From NCBI GenBank assembly GCA_017541205.1, contig JAFXZO010000082.1:3248-67247 (forward strand): DNA of 64,000 bases, written 5' to 3'. Shown one piece after another: positions 2,289-64,000 of this stretch. The position numbers and the translations under genes were made by a program. The notes under the pieces are model-generated. The model was not told the origin of the DNA and made no database searches. It saw nothing but the letters and a program-made list of their open reading frames with translations. The DNA comes from Clostridia bacterium. GTDB taxonomy: Bacteria > Bacillota > Clostridia > Christensenellales > Aristaeellaceae. Each line of letters opens with the position of its first letter. Position 1 is the stretch's first letter.

Positions 2289-3889
2289 AGAAGAGGCAAA
2301 AGCTCCTTTCCCTCTGCGCGCTGCTGATCCTGTGCGCGTTCCTGTCCGCCTGCCACGGCTCCCGGGAAACCAGCGCCTTTGCCGTGCCGGATACGTTTGA
2401 CGAAAGCCGCAGCTATGAGATCACCTTCTGGGCCAAGAACGACACCAACAAGACCCAGACCGCCGTGTATGAAAAGGCCATTGCGGATTTTGAAAGCGCG
2501 TATCCCAACATCCATGTGAACATGCGCCTGTATACCGATTACGGCCGCATCTATAACGACGTGGTCACCAATATCGCGACCGGGACCACGCCCAATGTGT
2601 GCATCACCTACCCGGACCATATCGCCACCTACCTGACGGGCAGCAACGTGATCGCCCCGCTGGACGAACTGTTCCAGCATGAAAAGTACGGCCTGGGCGG
2701 CAGCGAACTGCGCTTTGACGGGCCCAAGCAGAGCGAGATCGTGCCCAAGTTCCTGGAGGAATGCAGGCTCGGCGCGCATTATTACGCCCTGCCCTACATG
2801 CGCTCCACCGAGGCCCTCTACATCAACAAAACGTTTGTGGAGGCCCTGGGCTATACCCTGCCCGACGTGATCACCTGGGATTTTATCTGGGAGGTTTCGG
2901 ACGCCGCGGCGAAAAAGGACGAAAACGGCAATTATCTCCTCAACGGCCAGAAAACCATGATCCCCTTCATTTATAAATCCACCGACAACATGATGATCCA
3001 GATGCTTAAGCAGCTGGACGCGCCGTATTCCACCGCCGAAGGGGACATCCTCATCTTTAACGATACCACCCGCGAGCTCCTTTTGACCGTGCGCGATCAT
3101 GTGCTCACCGGGGCGTTCTCCACCTTCAAGATCTCCAGCTATCCCGGCAATTTTCTCAATGCCGGCCAGTGCGTCTTCGGCGTGGACTCCACCGCCGGGG
3201 CCACCTGGATGGGCCCGAACGCCCCGCACCTGGACATCGCCGCCGATCAGATCCAGGATTACGAATTGGCCGTGCGCCCCGTGCCGCAGTTTGACCCGGA
3301 GCATCCGGCCATGATCTCCCAGGGGCCGTCCGTGTGCGTATTCAACAAGGAAGACCCGCAGGAGGTGCTGGCCAGCTGGCTGTTTGCGCAGTATCTGCTC
3401 TCCGACGGCGTGCAGATCGGCTATTCCCAGACGGAGGGCTATGTGCCCGTGACGCTCAAGGCCCAGCAAAACCCCGCCTATCAGGAATACCTTTCCCGCA
3501 AGGGCGAGGATAACGACCTGTATTACAGCATCAAGATCGAGGCGGCGGAGCTGCTCATGCAGTACACGGACCGCACCTTCGTCACCCCCGTGTTCAGCGG
3601 CTCCGCCTCCCTGCGCGACGCCGCGGGGCAGCTGATCGAGGAAGTCACCAAGGGCGTCCGCCGCAAAAAAACCGTGGACGACGCGTTCGTGGATCAATTG
3701 TTCAGCCAGATCAACTCCCTTTACCGCCTGGACCAGATCAGCGCCCAGGACCTCGCCGCCGCGAAAAAGGACCTGAGCCCCCTCCCCGGCACCGCCGTGG
3801 GCCTGCTCTGCGCCATCGCCGCGGTCTGGGTGCTGATGGGCGTATACTGGGTTTCGCGCGTTATCCGGCAAAAGAAGAAAAAAGCGTGA
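2285..3889 (+). CDS. Extracellular solute-binding lipoprotein of the sugar ABC system, with an extra C-terminal hydrophobic anchor
   Basis: ATGA overlap with the upstream permease. Signal peptide with lipobox (..FLSAC..). Family-1 sugar-binding-protein-like body. The C-terminus is GTAVGLLCAIAAVWVLMGVYWV followed by RVIRQKKKKA. Confidence 0.8.
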   Translation: MKKRQKLLSLCALLILCAFLSACHGSRETSAFAVPDTFDESRSYEITFWAKNDTNKTQTAVYEKAIADFESAYPNIHVNMRLYTDYGRIYNDVVTNIATGTTPNVCITYPDHIATYLTGSNVIAPLDELFQHEKYGLGGSELRFDGPKQSEIVPKFLEECRLGAHYYALPYMRSTEALYINKTFVEALGYTLPDVITWDFIWEVSDAAAKKDENGNYLLNGQKTMIPFIYKSTDNMMIQMLKQLDAPYSTAEGDILIFNDTTRELLLTVRDHVLTGAFSTFKISSYPGNFLNAGQCVFGVDSTAGATWMGPNAPHLDIAADQIQDYELAVRPVPQFDPEHPAMISQGPSVCVFNKEDPQEVLASWLFAQYLLSDGVQIGYSQTEGYVPVTLKAQQNPAYQEYLSRKGEDNDLYYSIKIEAAELLMQYTDRTFVTPVFSGSASLRDAAGQLIEEVTKGVRRKKTVDDAFVDQLFSQINSLYRLDQISAQDLAAAKKDLSPLPGTAVGLLCAIAAVWVLMGVYWVSRVIRQKKKKA

Positions 3890-4006: not shown

Positions 4007-4728
4007 CACGCCTTGGCGTTCCGGCTCTTGCCCAGATACGCTTCCTTCACCTGCGGGTCATCCAGCAATTCCTTGCCCGTTCCGTGCAGGGTGATGCGTC
4101 CGGTTTCCAATACGTACGCGGAATCGGCGATGCGCAGGGCCGCGTTGGCGTTCTGCTCCACCAGCAGGATCGTGATGCCTTCCTCATGCAGCTTTTCGAT
4201 GATCCGGAAAATATCGCGGATCACCAGCGGCGCAAGGCCCAGGGACGGCTCGTCCATCATCATCAGCTTAGGCCGCATCATCATGGCGCGGCCCACGGCC
4301 AGCATTTGCTGTTCGCCGCCGGAGAGCGTGCCCGCCATCTGCCAGGAGCGTTCCTTAAGGCGCGGGAACATCTGGTATACATGATCGATATCCGGCTGGA
4401 TATCGTCCCTGCGCAGATACGCGCCGACCTTCAGGTTTTCCAGTACGGTCAGGTTGGGGAACACGCGCCGCCCTTCGGGCACCATGCCGATGCCCTCGGA
4501 GACGATCTTCTGCGGGCTTTGGCCGCTGATCACCTGGCCGTCGTAGGTGATGGTGCCTTCCCGCAGGGGCAGCAGGCCCGATATGGCGCGCAGCGTGGTG
4601 GATTTGCCCGCGCCGTTCGCGCCGATCAGGGTCACGATCTCCCCTTTTTCCACGGTCAGGGAAATGCCCTTGATGGCCTCGATGCCGCCGTAGCTCACTT
4701 TCAAATCTTTGATGTACAGCAGGCTCAT
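4006..4728 (-). CDS. livF: Branched-chain amino acid ABC transporter ATP-binding protein LivF
   Basis: 240 aa with Walker A GANGAGKST, LSGGEQQML signature and Walker B MMMDEP. ATGA overlap with livG. Confidence 0.9.
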   Translation of the reverse strand: MSLLYIKDLKVSYGGIEAIKGISLTVEKGEIVTLIGANGAGKSTTLRAISGLLPLREGTITYDGQVISGQSPQKIVSEGIGMVPEGRRVFPNLTVLENLKVGAYLRRDDIQPDIDHVYQMFPRLKERSWQMAGTLSGGEQQMLAVGRAMMMRPKLMMMDEPSLGLAPLVIRDIFRIIEKLHEEGITILLVEQNANAALRIADSAYVLETGRITLHGTGKELLDDPQVKEAYLGKSRNAKA

Positions 4729-5567
4729 TCGTCATTCCCTCCCAAGTAGGCGTCGATGACCGCCTGGTTATTCTGGATCTCCTCCGGGGTGCCCTCGGCG
4801 ATCAGCTTGCCGAACTCGATCACATAGATGCGGTCGGAAATGCCCATGACCAGGTCCATATGATGCTCGATCACGAACACGGTCAGGTTGAAATCCCGCT
4901 TGATCTGCTGGATGAACGCGCCCAGATCGAGCGTTTCCTGGGGGTTCATGCCGGCCGCGGGCTCGTCCAGGAGCAGCAGGCTCGGCTCCGTGGCCAGCGC
5001 GCGTGCGATTTCGAGCCGGCGCTGCTTGCCGTAGGGGAGCGAGGTGGCCTTCTCGTCGGCTACGTCCTCCAGGCCAACGATGCGCAGCAGGTCCATGGCC
5101 TTTTCCCGATTGCGCTTTTCTTCTTTGTAGTTGAGGCCGAAGGCCGCCGTAAAGATGTTGCTGGTGCGGCGCATATGGGTGGCGATCAGGACGTTTTCAA
5201 ACGCGGTCTGGCTCTTAAAGAGGCGGATATTCTGGAAGGTGCGGGCAATGCCCAGCTTTGTGATCCTGTCCGCGGTCATGGAGGTCTGCATGTTCAGGAA
5301 TTTTTCCGGATCGCTGCCCGCGTACATGCGCTTCATTTTGCCGCGGGGGTGATTGGCGGCGATGGGCTTGCCGTGGAAATAGACCGCGCCGTTGGTAGGC
5401 TCATACACGCCGGTGACGCAGTTGAAGGCCGTGGTCTTGCCCGCGCCGTTGGGTCCGATCAGGGCCACGATCTCGCCCTCGTCAATGCGCATGGACAGAT
5501 CGTTGATGGCCACCACGCCGCCAAACTGCATGGTGATGTTTTCCAGGCGCAATACGTTTTCGCTCAT
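4725..5567 (-). CDS. livG: Branched-chain amino acid ABC transporter ATP-binding protein LivG
   Basis: The start was moved to MSENVLRLENITMQFGG (ATG at 5567, ATGA overlap with the livM stop). Walker A GPNGAGKTT. LivG-type insertion and signature are present. Confidence 0.9.
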   Translation of the reverse strand: MSENVLRLENITMQFGGVVAINDLSMRIDEGEIVALIGPNGAGKTTAFNCVTGVYEPTNGAVYFHGKPIAANHPRGKMKRMYAGSDPEKFLNMQTSMTADRITKLGIARTFQNIRLFKSQTAFENVLIATHMRRTSNIFTAAFGLNYKEEKRNREKAMDLLRIVGLEDVADEKATSLPYGKQRRLEIARALATEPSLLLLDEPAAGMNPQETLDLGAFIQQIKRDFNLTVFVIEHHMDLVMGISDRIYVIEFGKLIAEGTPEEIQNNQAVIDAYLGGNDE

Positions 5568-6646
5568 TGCTTTGCCCTCCCCGCTTTTTTTCTGCCGGGC
5601 AGGCGCAGGTTCCATAGCTCCCTGTCGCCCATGATGCCCCGGCGGAAGAAGAGGACCACCACCATGATGACCGCGGAGAACGCGACCATGCGGAAGCCCG
5701 AACGCAGCAGGGGCACCTGGAAGGAGCCGATGAACTGCTCGTTATCCAGGAACCGAAGCCACCATTCGCTGCACGCGATATACAGATAAGAGGCGATCAC
5801 GCTGCCGCTGATGGAGCCCATGCCGCCGATGACCACCATGAGCAGGATATCGTACGTCATGGCGGACTTAAAGGAATTCGCCTGCACCGTGCCCTGGAAC
5901 ATGGCCAGCAGCGCGCCGCCGATGCCCGCGAAGAAGCAGCTGATAACGAAGGCGAGCTCCTTGTGCTTGAACAGGTTGATGCCCATGGCCTCGGCCGCCA
6001 CCTCATCGTCCCGGATGGCCTTGAAGGCGCGGCCATAGGTGGAATTGATGATGAGCAGGATCAGCCCGATACAGACCCCGGCGACGATCATGGGGAAGAG
6101 CACGGTGGTGCCCAATATCTTGGTGCTGGCAAAGGTCGGGTAGGTCTTGAGCAGATTGGAGCCGTTGGTGATCGGGCCCAGGCTGTCCCACTGCACCACG
6201 GCGCGGATGATTTCCGCGAAGCCCAGCGTGGCGATGGCCAGATAATCGCTCTTTAAGCGCAGCACCGGCAGGCCCACCAGCGCGGCCAGGAGCGCCGCCA
6301 CCACGCCGGCGAGGATCAGCGCCACCAGCAGCGGCAATTCAAACTGGATGATGCCGCCGTTGTAATACTGGTATACCGCGGCGTGGCGTTTGAGCGGGAT
6401 GGTGAACACCGCGTATACATACGCGCCCACCAGCATAAACCCGGCCTGGCCCAGGGAAAACAGGCCGGTAAAGCCGTTGAGCAGGTTCATGGATACGGCG
6501 ATCAGGGCGTATACCGCGCCTTTTTTGAGCACCGTGATGAGCATGGAGTTGGTGCCGAGCGCTGTCTCGGCCCACCAGGCGGCCGCGTACAGCAGCGCCA
6601 CCACGGCAAGGGATACGATCAGGCGAGTTGCCGACATTTTTTTCAT
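5564..6646 (-). CDS. livM: Branched-chain amino acid ABC transporter permease LivM
   Basis: Multi-pass membrane protein. The start was placed at ATG 6646 (MKKMSATRL) because GAGGTG lies 6 nt upstream. The ORF track begins at a GTG at 6655. Confidence 0.85.
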   Translation of the reverse strand: MKKMSATRLIVSLAVVALLYAAAWWAETALGTNSMLITVLKKGAVYALIAVSMNLLNGFTGLFSLGQAGFMLVGAYVYAVFTIPLKRHAAVYQYYNGGIIQFELPLLVALILAGVVAALLAALVGLPVLRLKSDYLAIATLGFAEIIRAVVQWDSLGPITNGSNLLKTYPTFASTKILGTTVLFPMIVAGVCIGLILLIINSTYGRAFKAIRDDEVAAEAMGINLFKHKELAFVISCFFAGIGGALLAMFQGTVQANSFKSAMTYDILLMVVIGGMGSISGSVIASYLYIACSEWWLRFLDNEQFIGSFQVPLLRSGFRMVAFSAVIMVVVLFFRRGIMGDRELWNLRLPGRKKAGRAKQ

Positions 6647-61113: not shown

Positions 61114-61233
61114 TTAGCTGCGGGCATAGACGTAGCCAAACCGCGTCCTGCCCTTCTCCGTTCTGCCGATCACATACCGGCCTTCGTATCGCCCGTCCCG
61201 TCGCTTATAGATGTTTTCTCCTCGCTTCGCCAT
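61114..61233 (-). pseudogene. Remnant of a tyrosine-recombinase (phage-type integrase) N-terminal arm/AP2-like DNA-binding domain (39 codons)
   Basis: A GGGAGG RBS precedes MAKRGENIYKRRDGRYEGRYVIGRTEKGRTRFGYVYARS, followed by TAA. The ..IYKR.DGR.E.RY..G...GK..Y.Y.. pattern is the usual integrase N-terminus. No catalytic domain follows. Confidence 0.55.
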
Positions 61234-61370
61234 GGTTATATCCTCCCTAACTTTTTGACGGCTCATCTGACGGCTCATACGTGCCGCTGCCTGTACGAAA
61301 ATTGTAGAGGGTCAGGGCGAAAAAAGTAAATGACTGTAGGAAAATAAAGGGAATGGAATGGTGGTTTTCG

Positions 61371-61399
61371 TTGACAAGAACCTATATATATGATAAAAT
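61371..61399 (+). promoter_or_regulatory. Near-consensus extended -10 sigma-A promoter upstream of the NusG-paralog gene
   Basis: TTGACA (61371-61376), 17 nt ending in TGa, TAAAAT (61394-61399). Confidence 0.55.
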
Positions 61400-61630
61400 A
61401 CGCCCGTATATCCGACAGGATGTACAATGTTTGGGTGTCCCGAATTCCTATGTTCTTCGCAATCTTTCGGTTATTGCGAAGGGACAGCGAGAGGGTGACA
61501 GCCTTGGCAGAGCGTAAGGGGGCTCCGGCCGGGAATGGGCATACAGGATCGCCGCCGCGGGCAATGAACGGCAGAGACGCTTCGGCGTCGACGTGTGTTG
61601 CGGTGCGGCAGTGGATCAACAGCTGCAAAT

Positions 61631-61674: not shown

Positions 61675-61824
61675 CTGGAATGCCCTGCTGTTTCCTTCTC
61701 TCTACAAAAGGCTTTTGGACCCGTTCATGCCATAGCATGGCGGACAGAAAGCCGGTCAAAAACGGTGTTCCGCCGCGCTGCGTGAAGCGCGGATGGCGAA
61801 GCCTTGCCATCGGGAGGAATCATC

Positions 61825-62349
61825 ATGGAGCCATACGTGCGGTGCGCGTTCTGCCTGACGGGCAACGAAAGAAGCGTAGCCCGGAAGATCGAGCAGAAGG
61901 GCCTGGGCCGCGTCCTGATCCCGCAAAAAGTCAAGCCCTTCCGGGTGAACGGCCAATGGATCGACAAAACCGAGCTGCTGATGCCGGGCTACCTGTTCGT
62001 GTTTTCGGACGAAGCGTACCCCTTCTGGACGCTGAAAAAGGTGGACGGCGTGATCCGTGTGCTGACATACGGGGAAAAAGACGAGGAAGGTTACCTGACC
62101 GGCAGCGATCTCGATTTTGCCGCCTGGCTGGAGAGGGAAAACGGCTTAATCGGCAAGCTGGACGCTATCCAAGAGGGTGATTTCGTCCGGATCACCGACG
62201 GCGCCCTGCAGGAAATGCAGGGGAAGGTCATCGCCATGAACCGCCACCGCCATACGGTGCAGGTTGAAGTCACGCTGTTCAACGCCAAACGCACGGTGTG
62301 GCTGGGGTATGAAGTGGTGGAGAAACGGGAAACGGAAAAAGCGGAATGA
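61825..62349 (+). CDS. NusG-family specialised paralog (LoaP/RfaH-like transcription antiterminator)
   Basis: Start at MEPYVRCAF (GGGAGG 7 nt upstream). NGN-like N-domain (..LMPGYLFVFSDE..VDGVIRVL..). C-terminal KOW (GDFVRITDGALQEMQGKVIAMN..VQVEVTLFN). Confidence 0.8.
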   Translation: MEPYVRCAFCLTGNERSVARKIEQKGLGRVLIPQKVKPFRVNGQWIDKTELLMPGYLFVFSDEAYPFWTLKKVDGVIRVLTYGEKDEEGYLTGSDLDFAAWLERENGLIGKLDAIQEGDFVRITDGALQEMQGKVIAMNRHRHTVQVEVTLFNAKRTVWLGYEVVEKRETEKAE

Positions 62350-62717
62350 TGGAAATAAATGTGATCTGTTGGAAGCGTTGCTTCATTGGCAACAAATTCT
62401 TCACTGTCGGAGCGCACAAAAATGACGCCTATTTAGCGGCCTAATGGGGGGATAAACTGTGCAGAATAAACAAAGGTTAGAATTACATCCTCCTGGCAGT
62501 CCGTTTCAGACAGGTTTTTCCTTGTTTTTGGCTCTTTTTTCAAGCCTCTCCCCGACCTCGAACAGGCTAACGATTCATAAGGTTTCATAGTTAGGAGCTT
62601 ATTGACCGAGTTCTCAACTCCCCATATTTTGCCGGTTACAAAGTTTGGAGCTATTCAGACAGCCGGAAGGCTGAAAACTGTAACCGCCGAGATAGTGATT
62701 AACTTGTTAGCGTACCC

Positions 62718-62975
62718 GATAAAGACAGTCAAATGGTAGTGAGAACCTTATTACCATAGTGGGTAGAGACAGTCAAAGGTGGTCAAAACCTTATTGCCAA
62801 AGCGGGTACTAACATTCAAAGGTGGTTAAAACCTTATTACCAATGTAGATAGCGACATTGATAGGTAGTGAGAACCTTATTACGGATGTCGGTAGAAACA
62901 GTTATAGGTGGTTAGAAACTTATTGGTGTAAGAGTTCAGACAGTCAGAGGTAGTGAGAAACTTGGTGCTGCTGGC
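62718..62975 (+). repeat. Six tandem 43-nt direct repeats in the non-coding leader
   Basis: Units at 62718-62761, 62762-62804, 62805-62847, 62848-62890, 62891-62933 and 62934-~62975, with a degenerate copy at ~62687-62717. Conserved blocks are GGTAGAGACAGTCAAAG and GTRGTNARAACCTTATTRCC. Confidence 0.85.
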
Positions 62976-63118
62976 TGTATGTTATAGATAAAGGTTTATT
63001 TATGTTGGTGAGCTTCCTCAAGTGTGCTTTGTCATTACTGGAAGCATGTGTGTTGTTGGTTCCGTGCCTCTACCCTGTGCTCTCCTTTCCAGGGACTGAG
63101 GTATTTTCAGATAGACTC

Positions 63119-63141
63119 GCTGGCGTCTGCCAGCTTTCTTT
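63119..63141 (+). terminator. Terminator-like hairpin 36 nt upstream of the aminotransferase start
   Basis: GCTGGC-gtct-GCCAGC (63119-63134) followed by TTTCTTT. Confidence 0.45.
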
Positions 63142-63176
63142 AGTTGACAGAAACGACAGGCAAGGATGGTTGATTG

Positions 63177-64000
63177 ATGAACAATTTTCTTTCTGATCCA
63201 CGATTTACCGGGATCGAACCTTTCAAGTCCAAAGTATGGCTTTCCTCTCCCACGATGCACGGTGACGAGCAGCGCTGGGTGGATGAGGCTATCCAAACAA
63301 ACTGGGTCTCTACCGTCGGAGAGAATGTCGACACCGTAGAAAAAGAGATGGCTGCCTATATCGGCAGCAAATGTGCCGTGGGTCTGTCCTGCGGCACGGC
63401 TGCGTTACACCTCGCCACCAAACTGGCCGGAGAAAAACTGTACGGTCAGGCGAGACCGAACCAAGGCACCTTGCAGGGTCACCGGGTTTTCTGTTCGGAT
63501 ATGACCTTCGACGCTTCCATCAACCCAGTTGCCTATGAAGATGGCGAGGCAGTTTTTATCGATACAGAACGCGACTCCTGGAACATGGACCCTGTTGCGC
63601 TGGAAAAGGCGTTTGAACTGTATCCCGACGTAAAACTCATTGTAATCGCCCATCTCTATGGCACTCCCGGTAAAATTGACGAGATTAGAGCCATCGCAGA
63701 TAAACACGGCGCCTTGATCGTTGAGGATGCCGCGGAGTCACTGGGCGCCACCTATAAAGGTGTTCAAACTGGCATTTTCGGGGATTACGGGGCTATTTCG
63801 TTTAACGGAAATAAGGTGATCACAGGCTCCGCAGGAGGGCTGTTCATCACCAATTCTCAGGAAGACGCAAACAAAGTCCGCAAGTGGTCCACCCAAAGCC
63901 GCGAAGCAGCCCCGTGGTATCAGCATGAGGAGATTGGCTACAACTATCGCATGAGCAATATTATCGCAGGTATTGTTCGTGGCCAAATCCCTTATTTGGA
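63177..64000 (+). CDS. DegT/DnrJ/EryC1/StrS-family sugar aminotransferase; 3' end lies beyond the window
   Basis: MNNFLSDPRF..LSSPTMHGDEQRWVDEAIQTNWVS..GTAALHLA..VEDAAESLGATYKG..ISFNGNKVITGSAGG (Schiff-base Lys region). Not in the ORF track because no stop is reached. Confidence 0.85.
   Translation, partial: MNNFLSDPRFTGIEPFKSKVWLSSPTMHGDEQRWVDEAIQTNWVSTVGENVDTVEKEMAAYIGSKCAVGLSCGTAALHLATKLAGEKLYGQARPNQGTLQGHRVFCSDMTFDASINPVAYEDGEAVFIDTERDSWNMDPVALEKAFELYPDVKLIVIAHLYGTPGKIDEIRAIADKHGALIVEDAAESLGATYKGVQTGIFGDYGAISFNGNKVITGSAGGLFITNSQEDANKVRKWSTQSREAAPWYQHEEIGYNYRMSNIIAGIVRGQIPYL

Follow-up and report, generated by a model that had tools for sequence, protein, structure and literature searches.

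In the spacer between a NusG-paralog gene and a surface-polysaccharide operon of an uncultured rumen Clostridia bacterium we found an array of seven head-to-tail units of 42 or 43 nt, which is a real non-coding element under purifying selection. Within a conserved, non-coding module of approximately 600-790 nt, the array forms the middle domain. Regarding its function, we tentatively propose that it is a transcribed, multivalent RNA element that gates read-through of the terminator before the DegT gene, a reading that we regard as possible rather than probable. The analysis covered a stretch of DNA of 64,000 nt (the window), in which the elements of interest are located as follows.

61371-61399, plus strand: near-consensus sigma-A-type promoter, TTGACA-17-TAAAAT with TG (11/12 matches)
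61692-61829, plus strand: structured RNA element directly 5' of the paralog start, distantly RAGATH-28-like (aligned in 10 loci)
61825-62349, plus strand: LoaP-like NusG paralog, 174 aa (Pfam NusG NGN domain; LoaP is the top NCBIfam model)
62382-62441, plus strand: remnant of the tail (FIGNKFFTVGAHKNDAYLAA*) of 'DegT-A', a truncated copy of DegT (matched by tblastn to the DegT-A tails in loci L019, L031, L038 and L029)
62508-62527, plus strand: weak AU-rich hairpin AGACAGG-UUUUUC-CUUGUUU, then a U-rich run (from the alignment; conserved in most leaders)
62589-62619, plus strand: hairpin, conserved and including G·U pairs: AGUUAGGAGCUU / GAGUUCUCAACU (RNAalifold)
62687-62975, plus strand: the array of seven units (TRF, repeat search, unit profile)
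62691-62711, 62735-62755, 62778-62798, 62821-62841, 62864-62884, 62907-62927 and 62949-62969, plus strand: 21-nt unit cores
63012-63045, plus strand: 3'-domain hairpin GCUUCC...GGAAGC, in the 'long' leader variant only
63066-63102, plus strand: hairpin GCCUC..CCCUG / CAGGG..GAGGU (U-A to C-G compensation in L025)
63119-63141, plus strand: intrinsic-terminator-like hairpin GCUGGC-GUCU-GCCAGC + UUUCUUU, ending 36 nt before the DegT ATG
63155-63179, plus strand: ribosome-binding region and start codon of DegT (GACAGGCAAGGAUGGUUGAUUGAUG)
63177-64000, plus strand: DegT/LegC-type aminotransferase, running past the end of the window (431 aa when read from the full contig)
63807-63827, plus strand: site 'S' in DegT (GGAAATAAGGTGATCACAGGC), which encodes GNKVITG with the PLP-binding lysine

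The array was delineated by three kinds of search. TRF reported a period-43 array at 62723-62924 (4.7 copies, 77% matches), a repeat search gave six in-register copies at 62725-62979 with spacings of 43, 43, 43, 43 and 42, and a unit profile search recovered seven copies at 62687-62973 with E values of 2.6e-5 to 1.5e-3. The tandem 43-nt repeats of the original prediction are thus real, with seven units counted by the profile search, and GGTAGTGAG lies, as it had stated, at 62735, 62864 and 62949. Also as described there, the array occupies a spacer in an operon that begins with a NusG paralog (LoaP-like by our analysis), the paralog stop is at 62349 and the DegT ATG at 63177, and 62418-63001 holds no ORF of at least 60 aa (the biggest have 51, 45 and 43 aa). 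Each unit consists of an imperfect hairpin on the plus strand, GGUAGUGAG-AAC-CUUAUUACC, followed by a linker of ~22 nt (consensus ..AAUGUGGGUAGAGACAGUCAAA). With up to three mismatches allowed, the core GGTRGTNARAACCTTATTRCC has five matches, all of them in the array, at 0.01 expected by chance. No unit copies were found outside the array within the 64-kb window. Scanning one genome per GTDB species for the exact core returned four single, unrelated matches only, taken to be chance matches, and a scan of IMG/VR for the unit returned no match. Rfam covariance models, including JUMPstart, EAR, STAXI and RAGATH-28, had no match on 62350-63180 at E up to 10, nor did Rfam match the array in the homologous leaders of eight related loci at E up to 1. 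A CRISPR array is ruled out, as the units abut and only ~6 variable nt separate the conserved blocks.

Six further places, from five additional metagenomic locus families, have a homologous leader 5' of a close DegT homologue. These leaders contain 4 and 5 units in the two copies of L019, 4 in L025, 2 in L029 and 5 each in L031 and L038; with the window included the copy number ranges from 2 to 7, and the gaps between loci comprise whole units. Individual units are orthologous from locus to locus at a constant spacing of 42-44 nt, and the first unit as well as a last type-B unit are retained in all seven leaders. All seven leader copies are oriented alike, and the position of the array 5' of DegT is constant. 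The window, L019a and L025 have the 'long' leader variant, and in L019 the leader module is duplicated in tandem. Identity of leader and array between loci amounts to 69-87%, compared with 34-55% at the four-fold degenerate sites of the adjacent DegT. Since the identity of the units exceeds that of the four-fold sites, the array is under selection.

On the plus strand only, each unit can fold into an imperfect, G·U-rich hairpin of 9 bp. In the observed register 81% of the stem cells pair, compared with 28-59% in slid registers, and the opposite strand would pair at only ~52%, because 51 of the 179 stem cells are G·U. Fold z-scores were negative for the plus strand and positive for the minus strand in all six arrays, the values for the array alone being modest (-1 to -2 in five of six). 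Conserved arms flank a variable centre of 3 nt: stem columns carry 0.40 changes each versus 0.89 in the loop, and the information content is highest in the arms. Covariation within the unit hairpins was not significant, with 79.6% paired after column shuffles compared with 81.0% observed, and one-sided substitutions in the unit stems preserved pairing in 16 cases and broke it in 17. The original prediction had leaned toward a DNA-level site. The pairing potential is, however, specific to the plus strand through its G·U pairs.

The remaining parts of the module are conserved as well. Its left edge is formed by the DegT-A tail remnant, within which 62384-62408 is an inverted unit-like sequence (minus-strand profile match, 11 bits, E 0.2). 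For the AU-rich hairpin at 62508-62527 the terminator scan flags the homologue in L019a, not the copy in the window, and the window scan found no canonical terminator between the paralog stop and the array. The hairpin at 62589-62619 shows one compensatory and several one-sided changes (RNAalifold). Every leader closes with a conserved intrinsic-terminator hairpin 25-40 nt 5' of the DegT start codon; the scan flags its homologues in L031, L019a and L025, and C-G to U-A compensation is seen in L019a and in L029. This places a conserved terminator just 3' of the array, where a NusG-paralog antiterminator would act, in line with the paralog setting of the original prediction. Inspection by eye revealed no alternative, anti-terminator pairing between the last unit and the terminator that is consistent across the leaders. 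Because no such conserved pairing is seen, passage of the terminator is most likely factor-dependent. Further upstream, the sequence at 61371-61399 is likely the operon promoter, ~420 nt 5' of the paralog start codon, as judged from its near-consensus hexamers, which recur identically and at equal distance from the paralog in L019 (5554-5582).

Several other candidates in this region were rejected. A conserved promoter at 62602-62630 was dismissed, given that its -10 box varies and its TTGACC -35 box lies in the loop of the conserved hairpin at 62589-62619. The small ORF at 62459-62590 is not coding: although frame and length are kept in 4-5 loci, differences are distributed 68/63/68 over the codon positions. 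The ORF at 63002-63196 does not persist as a reading frame in L019a, and for a 54-aa ORF on the minus strand (61117-61278) a Pfam search gave no match.

To what extent the array belongs to the neighbouring paralog was judged from the protein family and from the distribution of both elements. The best NCBIfam model for the paralog is LoaP (87.2 bits, E 1.3e-24, full length; cut-off 125 bits), ahead of UpxY with 36 bits (cut-off 100) and RfaH with 19-21 bits (cut-offs 124-144). The protein is therefore nearest to LoaP, not to RfaH, whose family cut-offs it misses, and the RfaH analogy of the original prediction is not supported. LoaP binds a leader RNA hairpin 5' of a NusA-enhanced terminator and promotes read-through (PMC12691694). 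A UNCG loop closed by a stem of at least 4 bp is absent from 62350-63180 and from the homologous leaders, and a single UUCG hairpin was seen, in the window alone and far upstream (61576-61589). The link between array and paralog is loose. Seven locus families of the paralog have no array, paralogs that are 76-91% identical adjoin unit-free leaders, some of them just 26-40 nt long, and in L038-L041 array and terminator are present with no paralog within 3.8 kb upstream. Of the expected link between unit and paralog, the variable copy number (2-7) was found, while the constant pairing with a paralog gene was not. An element of the 61692-61829 type, on the other hand, was located by nhmmer before every paralog and nowhere else. 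Compensatory changes support 11 of its 24 predicted pairs (12 loci), and at the homologous place in two loci there are sub-threshold Rfam RAGATH-28 matches of 21 and 30.6 bits. Judged from these alignments, it is a better candidate than the array for the recruitment site of the paralog.

The RNA-gate mechanism that we tentatively propose would operate as follows. The plus strand of the module would be transcribed as part of the polysaccharide operon, with a transcript that presumably runs from the promoter at ~61371-61399 through a 420-nt structured leader, the gene of the LoaP-like paralog and the module into DegT and the downstream genes. Each unit would present an imperfect, G·U-rich hairpin with strongly conserved arms and a purine-rich linker, and these hairpins may serve as multivalent RNA sites for a trans-acting protein, for which the LoaP-like NusG paralog would be the leading candidate. 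The intrinsic terminator at the module end, immediately before the DegT ribosome-binding site, would be the gate; bound protein would promote read-through of the terminator at 63119-63141 and of later ones, and 2-7 unit copies would tune the efficiency of capture. Selection, the strand-specific pairing potential, the compensatory changes in the flanking parts and the upstream promoter conserved with L019 support such a gate. Against it count the missing covariation, the modest z-scores, the lack of a UNCG hairpin, the dissociation of array and paralog and a start site that is predicted. That the array constitutes a multivalent loading or retention platform on the RNA for a LoaP-type paralog or, alternatively, inverted copies of the DegT lysine segment that drive recombination or antisense control, we consider unlikely.

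Other explanations place the function at the DNA level or deny it. In the original prediction, RNA polymerase pauses at the units, read as ops-like sites from the non-template DNA strand, and takes up the neighbouring paralog at multiple phased sites. The array indeed adjoins a NusG paralog 5' of a polysaccharide operon, and GGTAG recurs inside the units, but its A alternates with G between unit types. The resemblance to ops does not exceed chance: the 9-mer GGTAGCGTG at up to two mismatches occurs 141 times in the window compared with 172 expected. The 12-nt ops consensus is GGCGGTAGnnTG; no array position comes within three mismatches of the 12-nt GGCGGTAGCGTG, for which the window holds 81 such matches versus 87 expected. 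Phasing does not hold either, as 43 bp correspond to 4.1 helical turns and thus to a drift of ~34 degrees per unit, and homologous arrays mix 42- and 43-nt units. A hairpin of 21 nt is moreover too large for the transcription bubble. With a paralog that is LoaP-like rather than RfaH, with array and paralog dissociating in both directions, and with LoaP binding the single-stranded DNAs tested only non-specifically and at low affinity (PMC12691694), the ops model appears extremely unlikely. Somewhat better, yet still distinctly unlikely, is a double-stranded-DNA operator or upstream activating array, in which a DNA-binding regulator on the ~21-bp cores would govern an internal promoter located at the array's 3' end. 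Conserved arms around a variable centre of 3 nt are found in many operators, the constant spacing of 42-44 nt is about four helical turns, the region is AT-rich (41% G+C versus 60% for the window), and in the short leader variants a promoter-like TTAAGA/TTAGGA-17-TATGAT overlaps the last unit. This site is, however, missing from the long variant, including the window, and as DNA the type-B cores lack palindromic symmetry (Watson-Crick pairs at 4 of 9 positions, versus 7 of 9 pairs as RNA). The phase drift per 43-bp unit and the RNA-type compensatory changes in the flanking parts of the module speak against an operator as well. A functionless tandem repeat that was expanded by slippage and hitch-hikes with the conserved leader would be compatible with the whole-unit variation in copy number and with the lack of covariation. 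It is very unlikely in view of units that are orthologous between loci, of 69-87% identity where synonymous sites are near saturation, and of the first and a last type-B unit being kept in 7/7 leaders.

Two further explanations involve the relation of the units to DegT itself. The reverse complement of the type-A core encodes GNKVLTT, compared with GNKVITG at site S. Among all 21-mers S is the best antisense match (14-15/21) for 4/7 window units, 4/5 units of L031 and 2/5 units of L038. For the units of L019b, L025 and L029, S does not stand out, and 15/21 identity to S alone has a P of ~0.1 relative to codon-shuffled DegT. Outside the arrays, the unit profile matches the minus strand almost exclusively at S sites and at the tail site of DegT-A. 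Among 20 truncated DegT proteins, two of which look cut by contig ends, most lose DegT homology within a few residues of the catalytic-lysine codon, and most of the tails end ..AA*; of the best 120 matches ~85 are truncated to that DegT length range. The DegT-A fragments are still protein-like with saturated synonymous sites, and a tblastn comparison of the remaining families of truncated-DegT tails with the loci analysed yielded noise, except for GNKVLTT on the antisense of the units. The units could accordingly be inverted copies of the DegT segment at S that, together with S and 62384-62408, are substrates or scars of recombination. Truncated DegT fragments before the module would be accounted for by an exchange, duplication or inversion at the 5' end of this polysaccharide locus, and the antisense match to S, the concentration of minus-strand profile matches, the shared break point at the lysine codon and the state of the DegT-A fragments all point this way, as do the tandem duplication in L019 and the fact that assemblies break around the module. 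There is also a precedent in Eggerthella lenta, where capsule loci change their position with respect to loaP through inversions bounded by short inverted repeats (PMC13131767). We nevertheless hold this reading to be doubtful: besides the weak significance of the identity to S and the three loci that do not single it out, all seven leader copies have one orientation, three Logan contigs cross 62384-62408 unbranched, no recombinase gene is consistently nearby, and purifying selection on the units is hard to explain if they are scars only.

Alternatively, the units may act as RNA without the paralog, namely as an mRNA stabiliser or insulator after intercistronic processing, as a ribosome stand-by site or decoy via their Shine-Dalgarno-like AAAGGUGGU boxes, or as an antisense of DegT that would set its translation or stability. 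The evidence from strand specificity and selection applies here just as to the RNA gate, and the array does occur without an adjacent paralog in L038-L041. Type-B units contain AAAGGUGGU, and the true ribosome-binding region GACAGGCAAGGAUGGU, like the initial 16 nt of 63155-63179, is similar to the 5' half of a unit; type-A units, in contrast, are poor Shine-Dalgarno matches. Predicted unit-S duplexes reach -17 to -20 kcal/mol, with S as the best DegT site for 4/7 window units, but the complementarity to S is lost in 3/6 loci. Processing sites are not indicated by the present data, and none of the three roles explains the conserved terminator just downstream, which leaves also this alternative with a low probability.

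The proposed RNA gate shares features with several known systems. In the LoaP leaders of the Bacillus velezensis dfn and mln operons the paralog gene likewise adjoins its target operon, and the spacer contains a region with an RNA hairpin and, after it, an intrinsic terminator to be read through (PMC12691694); here, too, an intrinsic terminator, at 63119-63141, precedes the first biosynthetic gene. The LoaP element is, however, a single hairpin with a UNCG-type tetraloop, compared with 2-7 tandem units with tri-loops here. The present paralog scores below the LoaP cut-off (87 vs 125 bits), its binding to the array is a proposal, and most loci with a paralog of this family have no array. With UpxY and opsX of Bacteroides capsule loci, the polysaccharide operon also begins with the paralog gene; a promoter and a long conserved leader precede it, with a conserved cis element 5' of the paralog gene (PMC11685472). 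The site that UpxY recognises is a single extended DNA sequence at a polymerase that has paused, with a pause hairpin. In contrast, the UpxY model gives just 36 bits here (cut-off 100), and our array is located 3' of the paralog gene rather than in that leader. With RfaH and ops (and JUMPstart) of Gammaproteobacteria only the general idea is shared, that a NusG paralog acts on polysaccharide operons via a cis site in the leader. There ops is single-copy and read as non-template DNA, whereas here the 12-nt ops is absent, the paralog is not RfaH-like and Rfam JUMPstart does not match.

Structured elements outside these systems resemble the array in part. The EAR (eps-associated RNA) of Bacillales is reportedly a structured intercistronic RNA, located in an exopolysaccharide operon and connected with processive antitermination, as described by Irnov and Winkler in 2010. 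It is a single pseudoknotted element, unlike the tandem array, for which Rfam gives no EAR match up to an E of 10. In Streptococcus pneumoniae, BOX elements consist of boxA-boxB(n)-boxC, with conserved ends and variable tandem units of ~45 nt, and can fold as RNA. The array is of similarly modular build; BOX is dispersed in ~100 copies per genome, however, whereas the array occurs once in 64 kb and always before DegT. Shufflons and invertons (R64 sfx; Bacteroides and Eggerthella capsule) also have short similar sites in both orientations at the junction of constant and variable parts of a surface-structure locus, to which the inverted unit-like sites at 62384-62408 and S (63807-63827) correspond here. 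They differ from the present locus, where a single orientation is observed in all seven leaders and no recombinase gene is linked. We know of no dense 43-nt tandem site arrays in shufflons or invertons.

Specialised NusG paralogs switch on long and costly surface-polysaccharide and antibiotic operons. To our knowledge, target finding by Gram-positive LoaP is established for one Bacillus hairpin only. The present locus offers a selected leader element of variable copy number beside a conserved terminator and, separately, a covarying RNA before every member of the paralog family. If the array were a loading platform for the paralog, it would represent the first case of a NusG-family factor with a recruitment element in multiple copies, with its copy number tuning antitermination. 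If the units instead marked a recombination hotspot at the DegT lysine codon, this would help to explain the diversification of capsule loci in rumen Clostridia and why these loci break metagenome assemblies. So far the array is known from a narrow group of uncultured ruminant-gut Clostridia only.

The array occupies the spacer between a NusG-paralog gene (61825-62349) and a gene for a DegT/LegC-type aminotransferase. Tandem Repeats Finder reported a period-43 array at 62723-62924, a repeat search of the window gave six in-register copies from 62725 to 62979, and a profile built from the units placed seven copies between 62687 and 62973. All three bear out the tandem 43-nt repeat of the original prediction, which was also right about the ends of the flanking genes, the absence of ORFs of at least 60 aa at 62418-63001 and the positions of GGTAGTGAG. 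Within the 64 kb searched, the 21-nt core GGTRGTNARAACCTTATTRCC had five matches with at most 3 mismatches, exclusively in the array (0.01 expected by chance). The G+C content of the array region is 41%, compared to 60% for the window. Type-A units (GGTAGTGAG...ATTACC) alternate with type-B units (GGTGGTTAG...ATTGGC), which makes a dimer of about 86 nt the older repeat.

Homologues of the paralog and of DegT served as starting points and led to the same leader, i.e. the conserved non-coding spacer that holds the array, in six places besides the window.

Units per leader (L handles denote retrieved contigs or loci; a and b are the two leader copies of L019)
Window: 7 units
L019 copy a: 4 units
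L019 copy b: 5 units
L025: 4 units
L029/L030: 2 units
L031-L033: 5 units
L038-L041: 5 units

Whether copy number varies among relatives can thus be answered positively: arrays of 2 to 7 units differ by entire units, each 42 or 43 nt long in every locus, and no leader lacks the first unit or a last type-B unit. Between loci, identity is 69-87% in aligned columns of the array but only 34-55% at four-fold degenerate sites of the adjacent DegT, and we conclude that purifying selection acts on the units, which are not a drifting repeat. Both the existence of the element and selection on it are clear; its host range is narrow.

The best family model for the paralog was LoaP, with 87 bits, short of the curated cut-off (125), and scores for UpxY and RfaH were far lower. 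The array adjoins the paralog in the window, as the original prediction had it, but the expected link turned out to be one-sided, since each occurs without the other. In L011, L013, L014, L015, L023, L024 and L028 paralogs of 56-91% identity are followed by other leaders or almost no spacer, and in L038-L041 the 3.8 kb upstream of array and terminator contain no paralog; the unit does not always lie shortly downstream of a NusG-paralog gene. A different element lies directly 5' of the paralog gene:

61692-61829: conserved structured RNA element of about 130 nt

Its counterpart precedes every paralog, in the seven loci with other leaders as well as in L019, L025, L029 and L031, and across 12 loci compensatory changes occur in 11 of the 24 predicted pairs. 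This element rather than the array is the cis partner travelling with the paralog, and a candidate recruitment site or attenuator for the paralog family. Sub-threshold matches to Rfam RAGATH-28 (21 and 30.6 bits, cut-off 45.3) were found at the homologous place in two loci; a literature search on RAGATH-28 returned no match. In L037 an uncalled, distant NusG-like frame (4638-4967, 32% identity to the paralog) lies directly 5' of an array-less DegT; in front of this frame stands the upstream element's 3' motif, ATGGCGAAGC. Upstream of the paralog-less polysaccharide locus of L038 lies an AT-rich region of 817 nt (2960-3800) in which AAAAAGGTTGAATTRA..GCCG recurs several times, resembling a set of protein-binding repeats.

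The surroundings of the spacer contain the following signals:

61371-61399 (L019 5554-5582, same hexamers): near-consensus promoter TTGACA-17-TAAAAT with TG
63119-63141: intrinsic-terminator-like hairpin with U-run, 36 nt 5' of the DegT start

The promoter lies about 420 nt from the paralog in both window and L019, which implies a long structured 5' leader. No canonical terminator was found between paralog and array in the window; the array is thus best seen in the intercistronic spacer of one transcript, which presumably starts upstream of the paralog. Each leader closes with this terminator-like hairpin, in which a compensatory change from C-G to U-A is seen in L019a and in L029. In some relatives a strong intrinsic terminator stands immediately 3' of the paralog gene (L019 6592-6612; L015 about 6616-6640), and in such loci the polysaccharide genes may be reached only if the paralog reads through its own terminator. 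The long leader 5' of the paralog also contains a perfect GACGC-UUCG-GCGUC hairpin (61576-61589), replaced in homologous loci by hairpins with other stems and loops. The ribosome-binding region of DegT (63155-63170, GACAGGCAAGGATGGT) is similar to the 5' half of the unit (GACAGTCAAAGGTGGT), and type-B units contain the Shine-Dalgarno-like AAAGGTGGT. The stop of a DegT remnant is overlapped by a 43-codon ORF (62459-62590) with a strong ribosome-binding site; in 4-5 loci this ORF is free of indels and retains its frame and length. We rejected it as protein-coding, the differences being even across codon positions (68/63/68); the constraint probably acts on nucleic acid.

Each core can fold into a 9-bp hairpin with a 3-nt loop, GGUAGUGAG-AAC-CUUAUUACC. 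In the true register 81% of stem cells are paired across 20 units, compared to 28-59% in slid registers; because 51 of 179 cells are G·U, pairing on the complementary strand would drop to about 52%. Fold z-scores were negative for the plus strand and positive for the minus strand in 6 of 6 arrays, most of them just -1 to -2. Type-B cores match at 4 of 9 Watson-Crick positions as a DNA palindrome but form 7 of 9 pairs as RNA, and the hairpins flanking the array show RNA-type compensatory changes. Column shuffles still gave 79.6% pairing, and the unit hairpins therefore show no covariation beyond composition; 16 one-sided stem substitutions keep pairing and 17 break it. The arms are more conserved than the loop, which would fit sequence-specific hairpin recognition but also a DNA site. 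With pairing specific to the plus strand and rich in G·U, we lean tentatively towards units acting as RNA, reversing the slight preference for a single-stranded or DNA-level site in the original prediction.

We tentatively propose that the units are RNA hairpin sites within the transcribed spacer, which would bind a trans-acting factor and thereby let RNA polymerase pass the conserved terminator 5' of DegT; the LoaP-like paralog would be the most plausible ligand. In Bacillus, LoaP binds a single UNCG hairpin and a NusA-enhanced terminator is read through (PMC12691694). The array locus has the same order, running from the paralog through a hairpin region and a terminator to the first biosynthetic gene, and agrees in leader terminator and gene adjacency, but the array leader has no UNCG hairpin and the paralog scores below the LoaP family cut-off. 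A cis element accompanying the paralog upstream of its gene resembles UpxY systems (PMC11685472). No Rfam family matched the array element, and none of the LoaP and UpxY papers covered (PMC12691694, PMC11685472, PMC7819879) describes a multi-copy leader array for a NusG paralog. The array would join the cis elements in leaders of antitermination-controlled polysaccharide operons, a proposal open to testing. Non-template DNA sites like ops, the E. coli element recruiting the NusG paralog RfaH, are extremely improbable: matches at 7 of 9 positions to GGTAGCGTG occur 141 times in the window (172 expected), no unit lies within 3 mismatches of the 12-mer ops, and the A of GGTAG is G in all type-B units. 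Membership in the ops/RfaH system was rejected on the missing 12-mer and the far lower RfaH score. Purifying selection makes a functionless repeat very improbable. An array of double-stranded-DNA operators, with which the conserved arms would agree, is improbable; the type-B cores are poorer as palindromes than as RNA stems.

Two further readings draw, one of them in part, on an unexpected likeness between units and DegT. The reverse complement of the type-A core reads GNKVLTT, and the catalytic-lysine segment of DegT (site S, 63807-63827) reads GNKVITG. Truncated DegT copies precede the module:

62382-62441: tail of a truncated DegT copy (..FIGNKFFTVGAHKNDAYLAA, stop), left edge of the module
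L019 8486-9184, L031 3747-4445, L038 3795-4445, L029 4184-4561: truncated DegT copies before the module

In these four loci the FIGNKFFTVGAHKNDAYLAA tail ends a DegT fragment of 125-232 aa, and the first 21-25 nt of the tail are an inverted unit-like sequence (window 62384-62408). Such truncation appears to be common in the protein database, where about 85 of the 120 best matches are 221-263 aa long. In most of 20 such proteins examined, DegT homology stops within a few residues of the lysine codon; two of the 20 seem to be truncated by the end of their contig. Most carry family-specific tails ending in AA and a stop. The fragments have stayed protein-like despite saturation at synonymous sites, which holds even in comparison with the full-length DegT of their own locus. 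A recombination element or scar tied to site S would account for antisense likeness and truncation points, but we consider it rather unlikely: neither the leader alignment nor contigs crossing the region revealed an alternative orientation or junction, a 15/21 identity of unit to S by itself has P of about 0.1 against codon-shuffled DegT, and the units of three loci do not single out S. The statistical support for this likeness is only moderate. A paralog-independent RNA role (stability, decoy Shine-Dalgarno boxes or antisense) also seems rather unlikely; 4 of 7 window units, and likewise several in L031 and L038, have site S as their best 21-mer match and their best predicted RNA duplex site, but the same three loci count against antisense pairing. 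Serine recombinase/resolvase genes lie near some loci, not consistently (L026 659-2335, minus strand; L037 1109-1723).

The window derives from a ruminant-gut Clostridia MAG (GCA_017530275.1). Every contig identical to the window ends just after DegT, and three independent Logan contigs (L004, L005, L006) end at one identical base inside the leader, 62606, directly after the unit-like GTTAGGAGCTTATTGAC. The shared end point hints at a second copy of the module or at a strain variant present alongside; the two module copies of L019 differ at the equivalent base. A second, different tandem array follows the DegT stop at L001 12650-12859 (about 64474-64683 in window-equivalent positions, past the window end), with units of about 33 nt (GTAGATAYGCATCTGC..CATGCAT.AG) that each form a small hairpin. 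All three assemblies of the genome break within or just past it.
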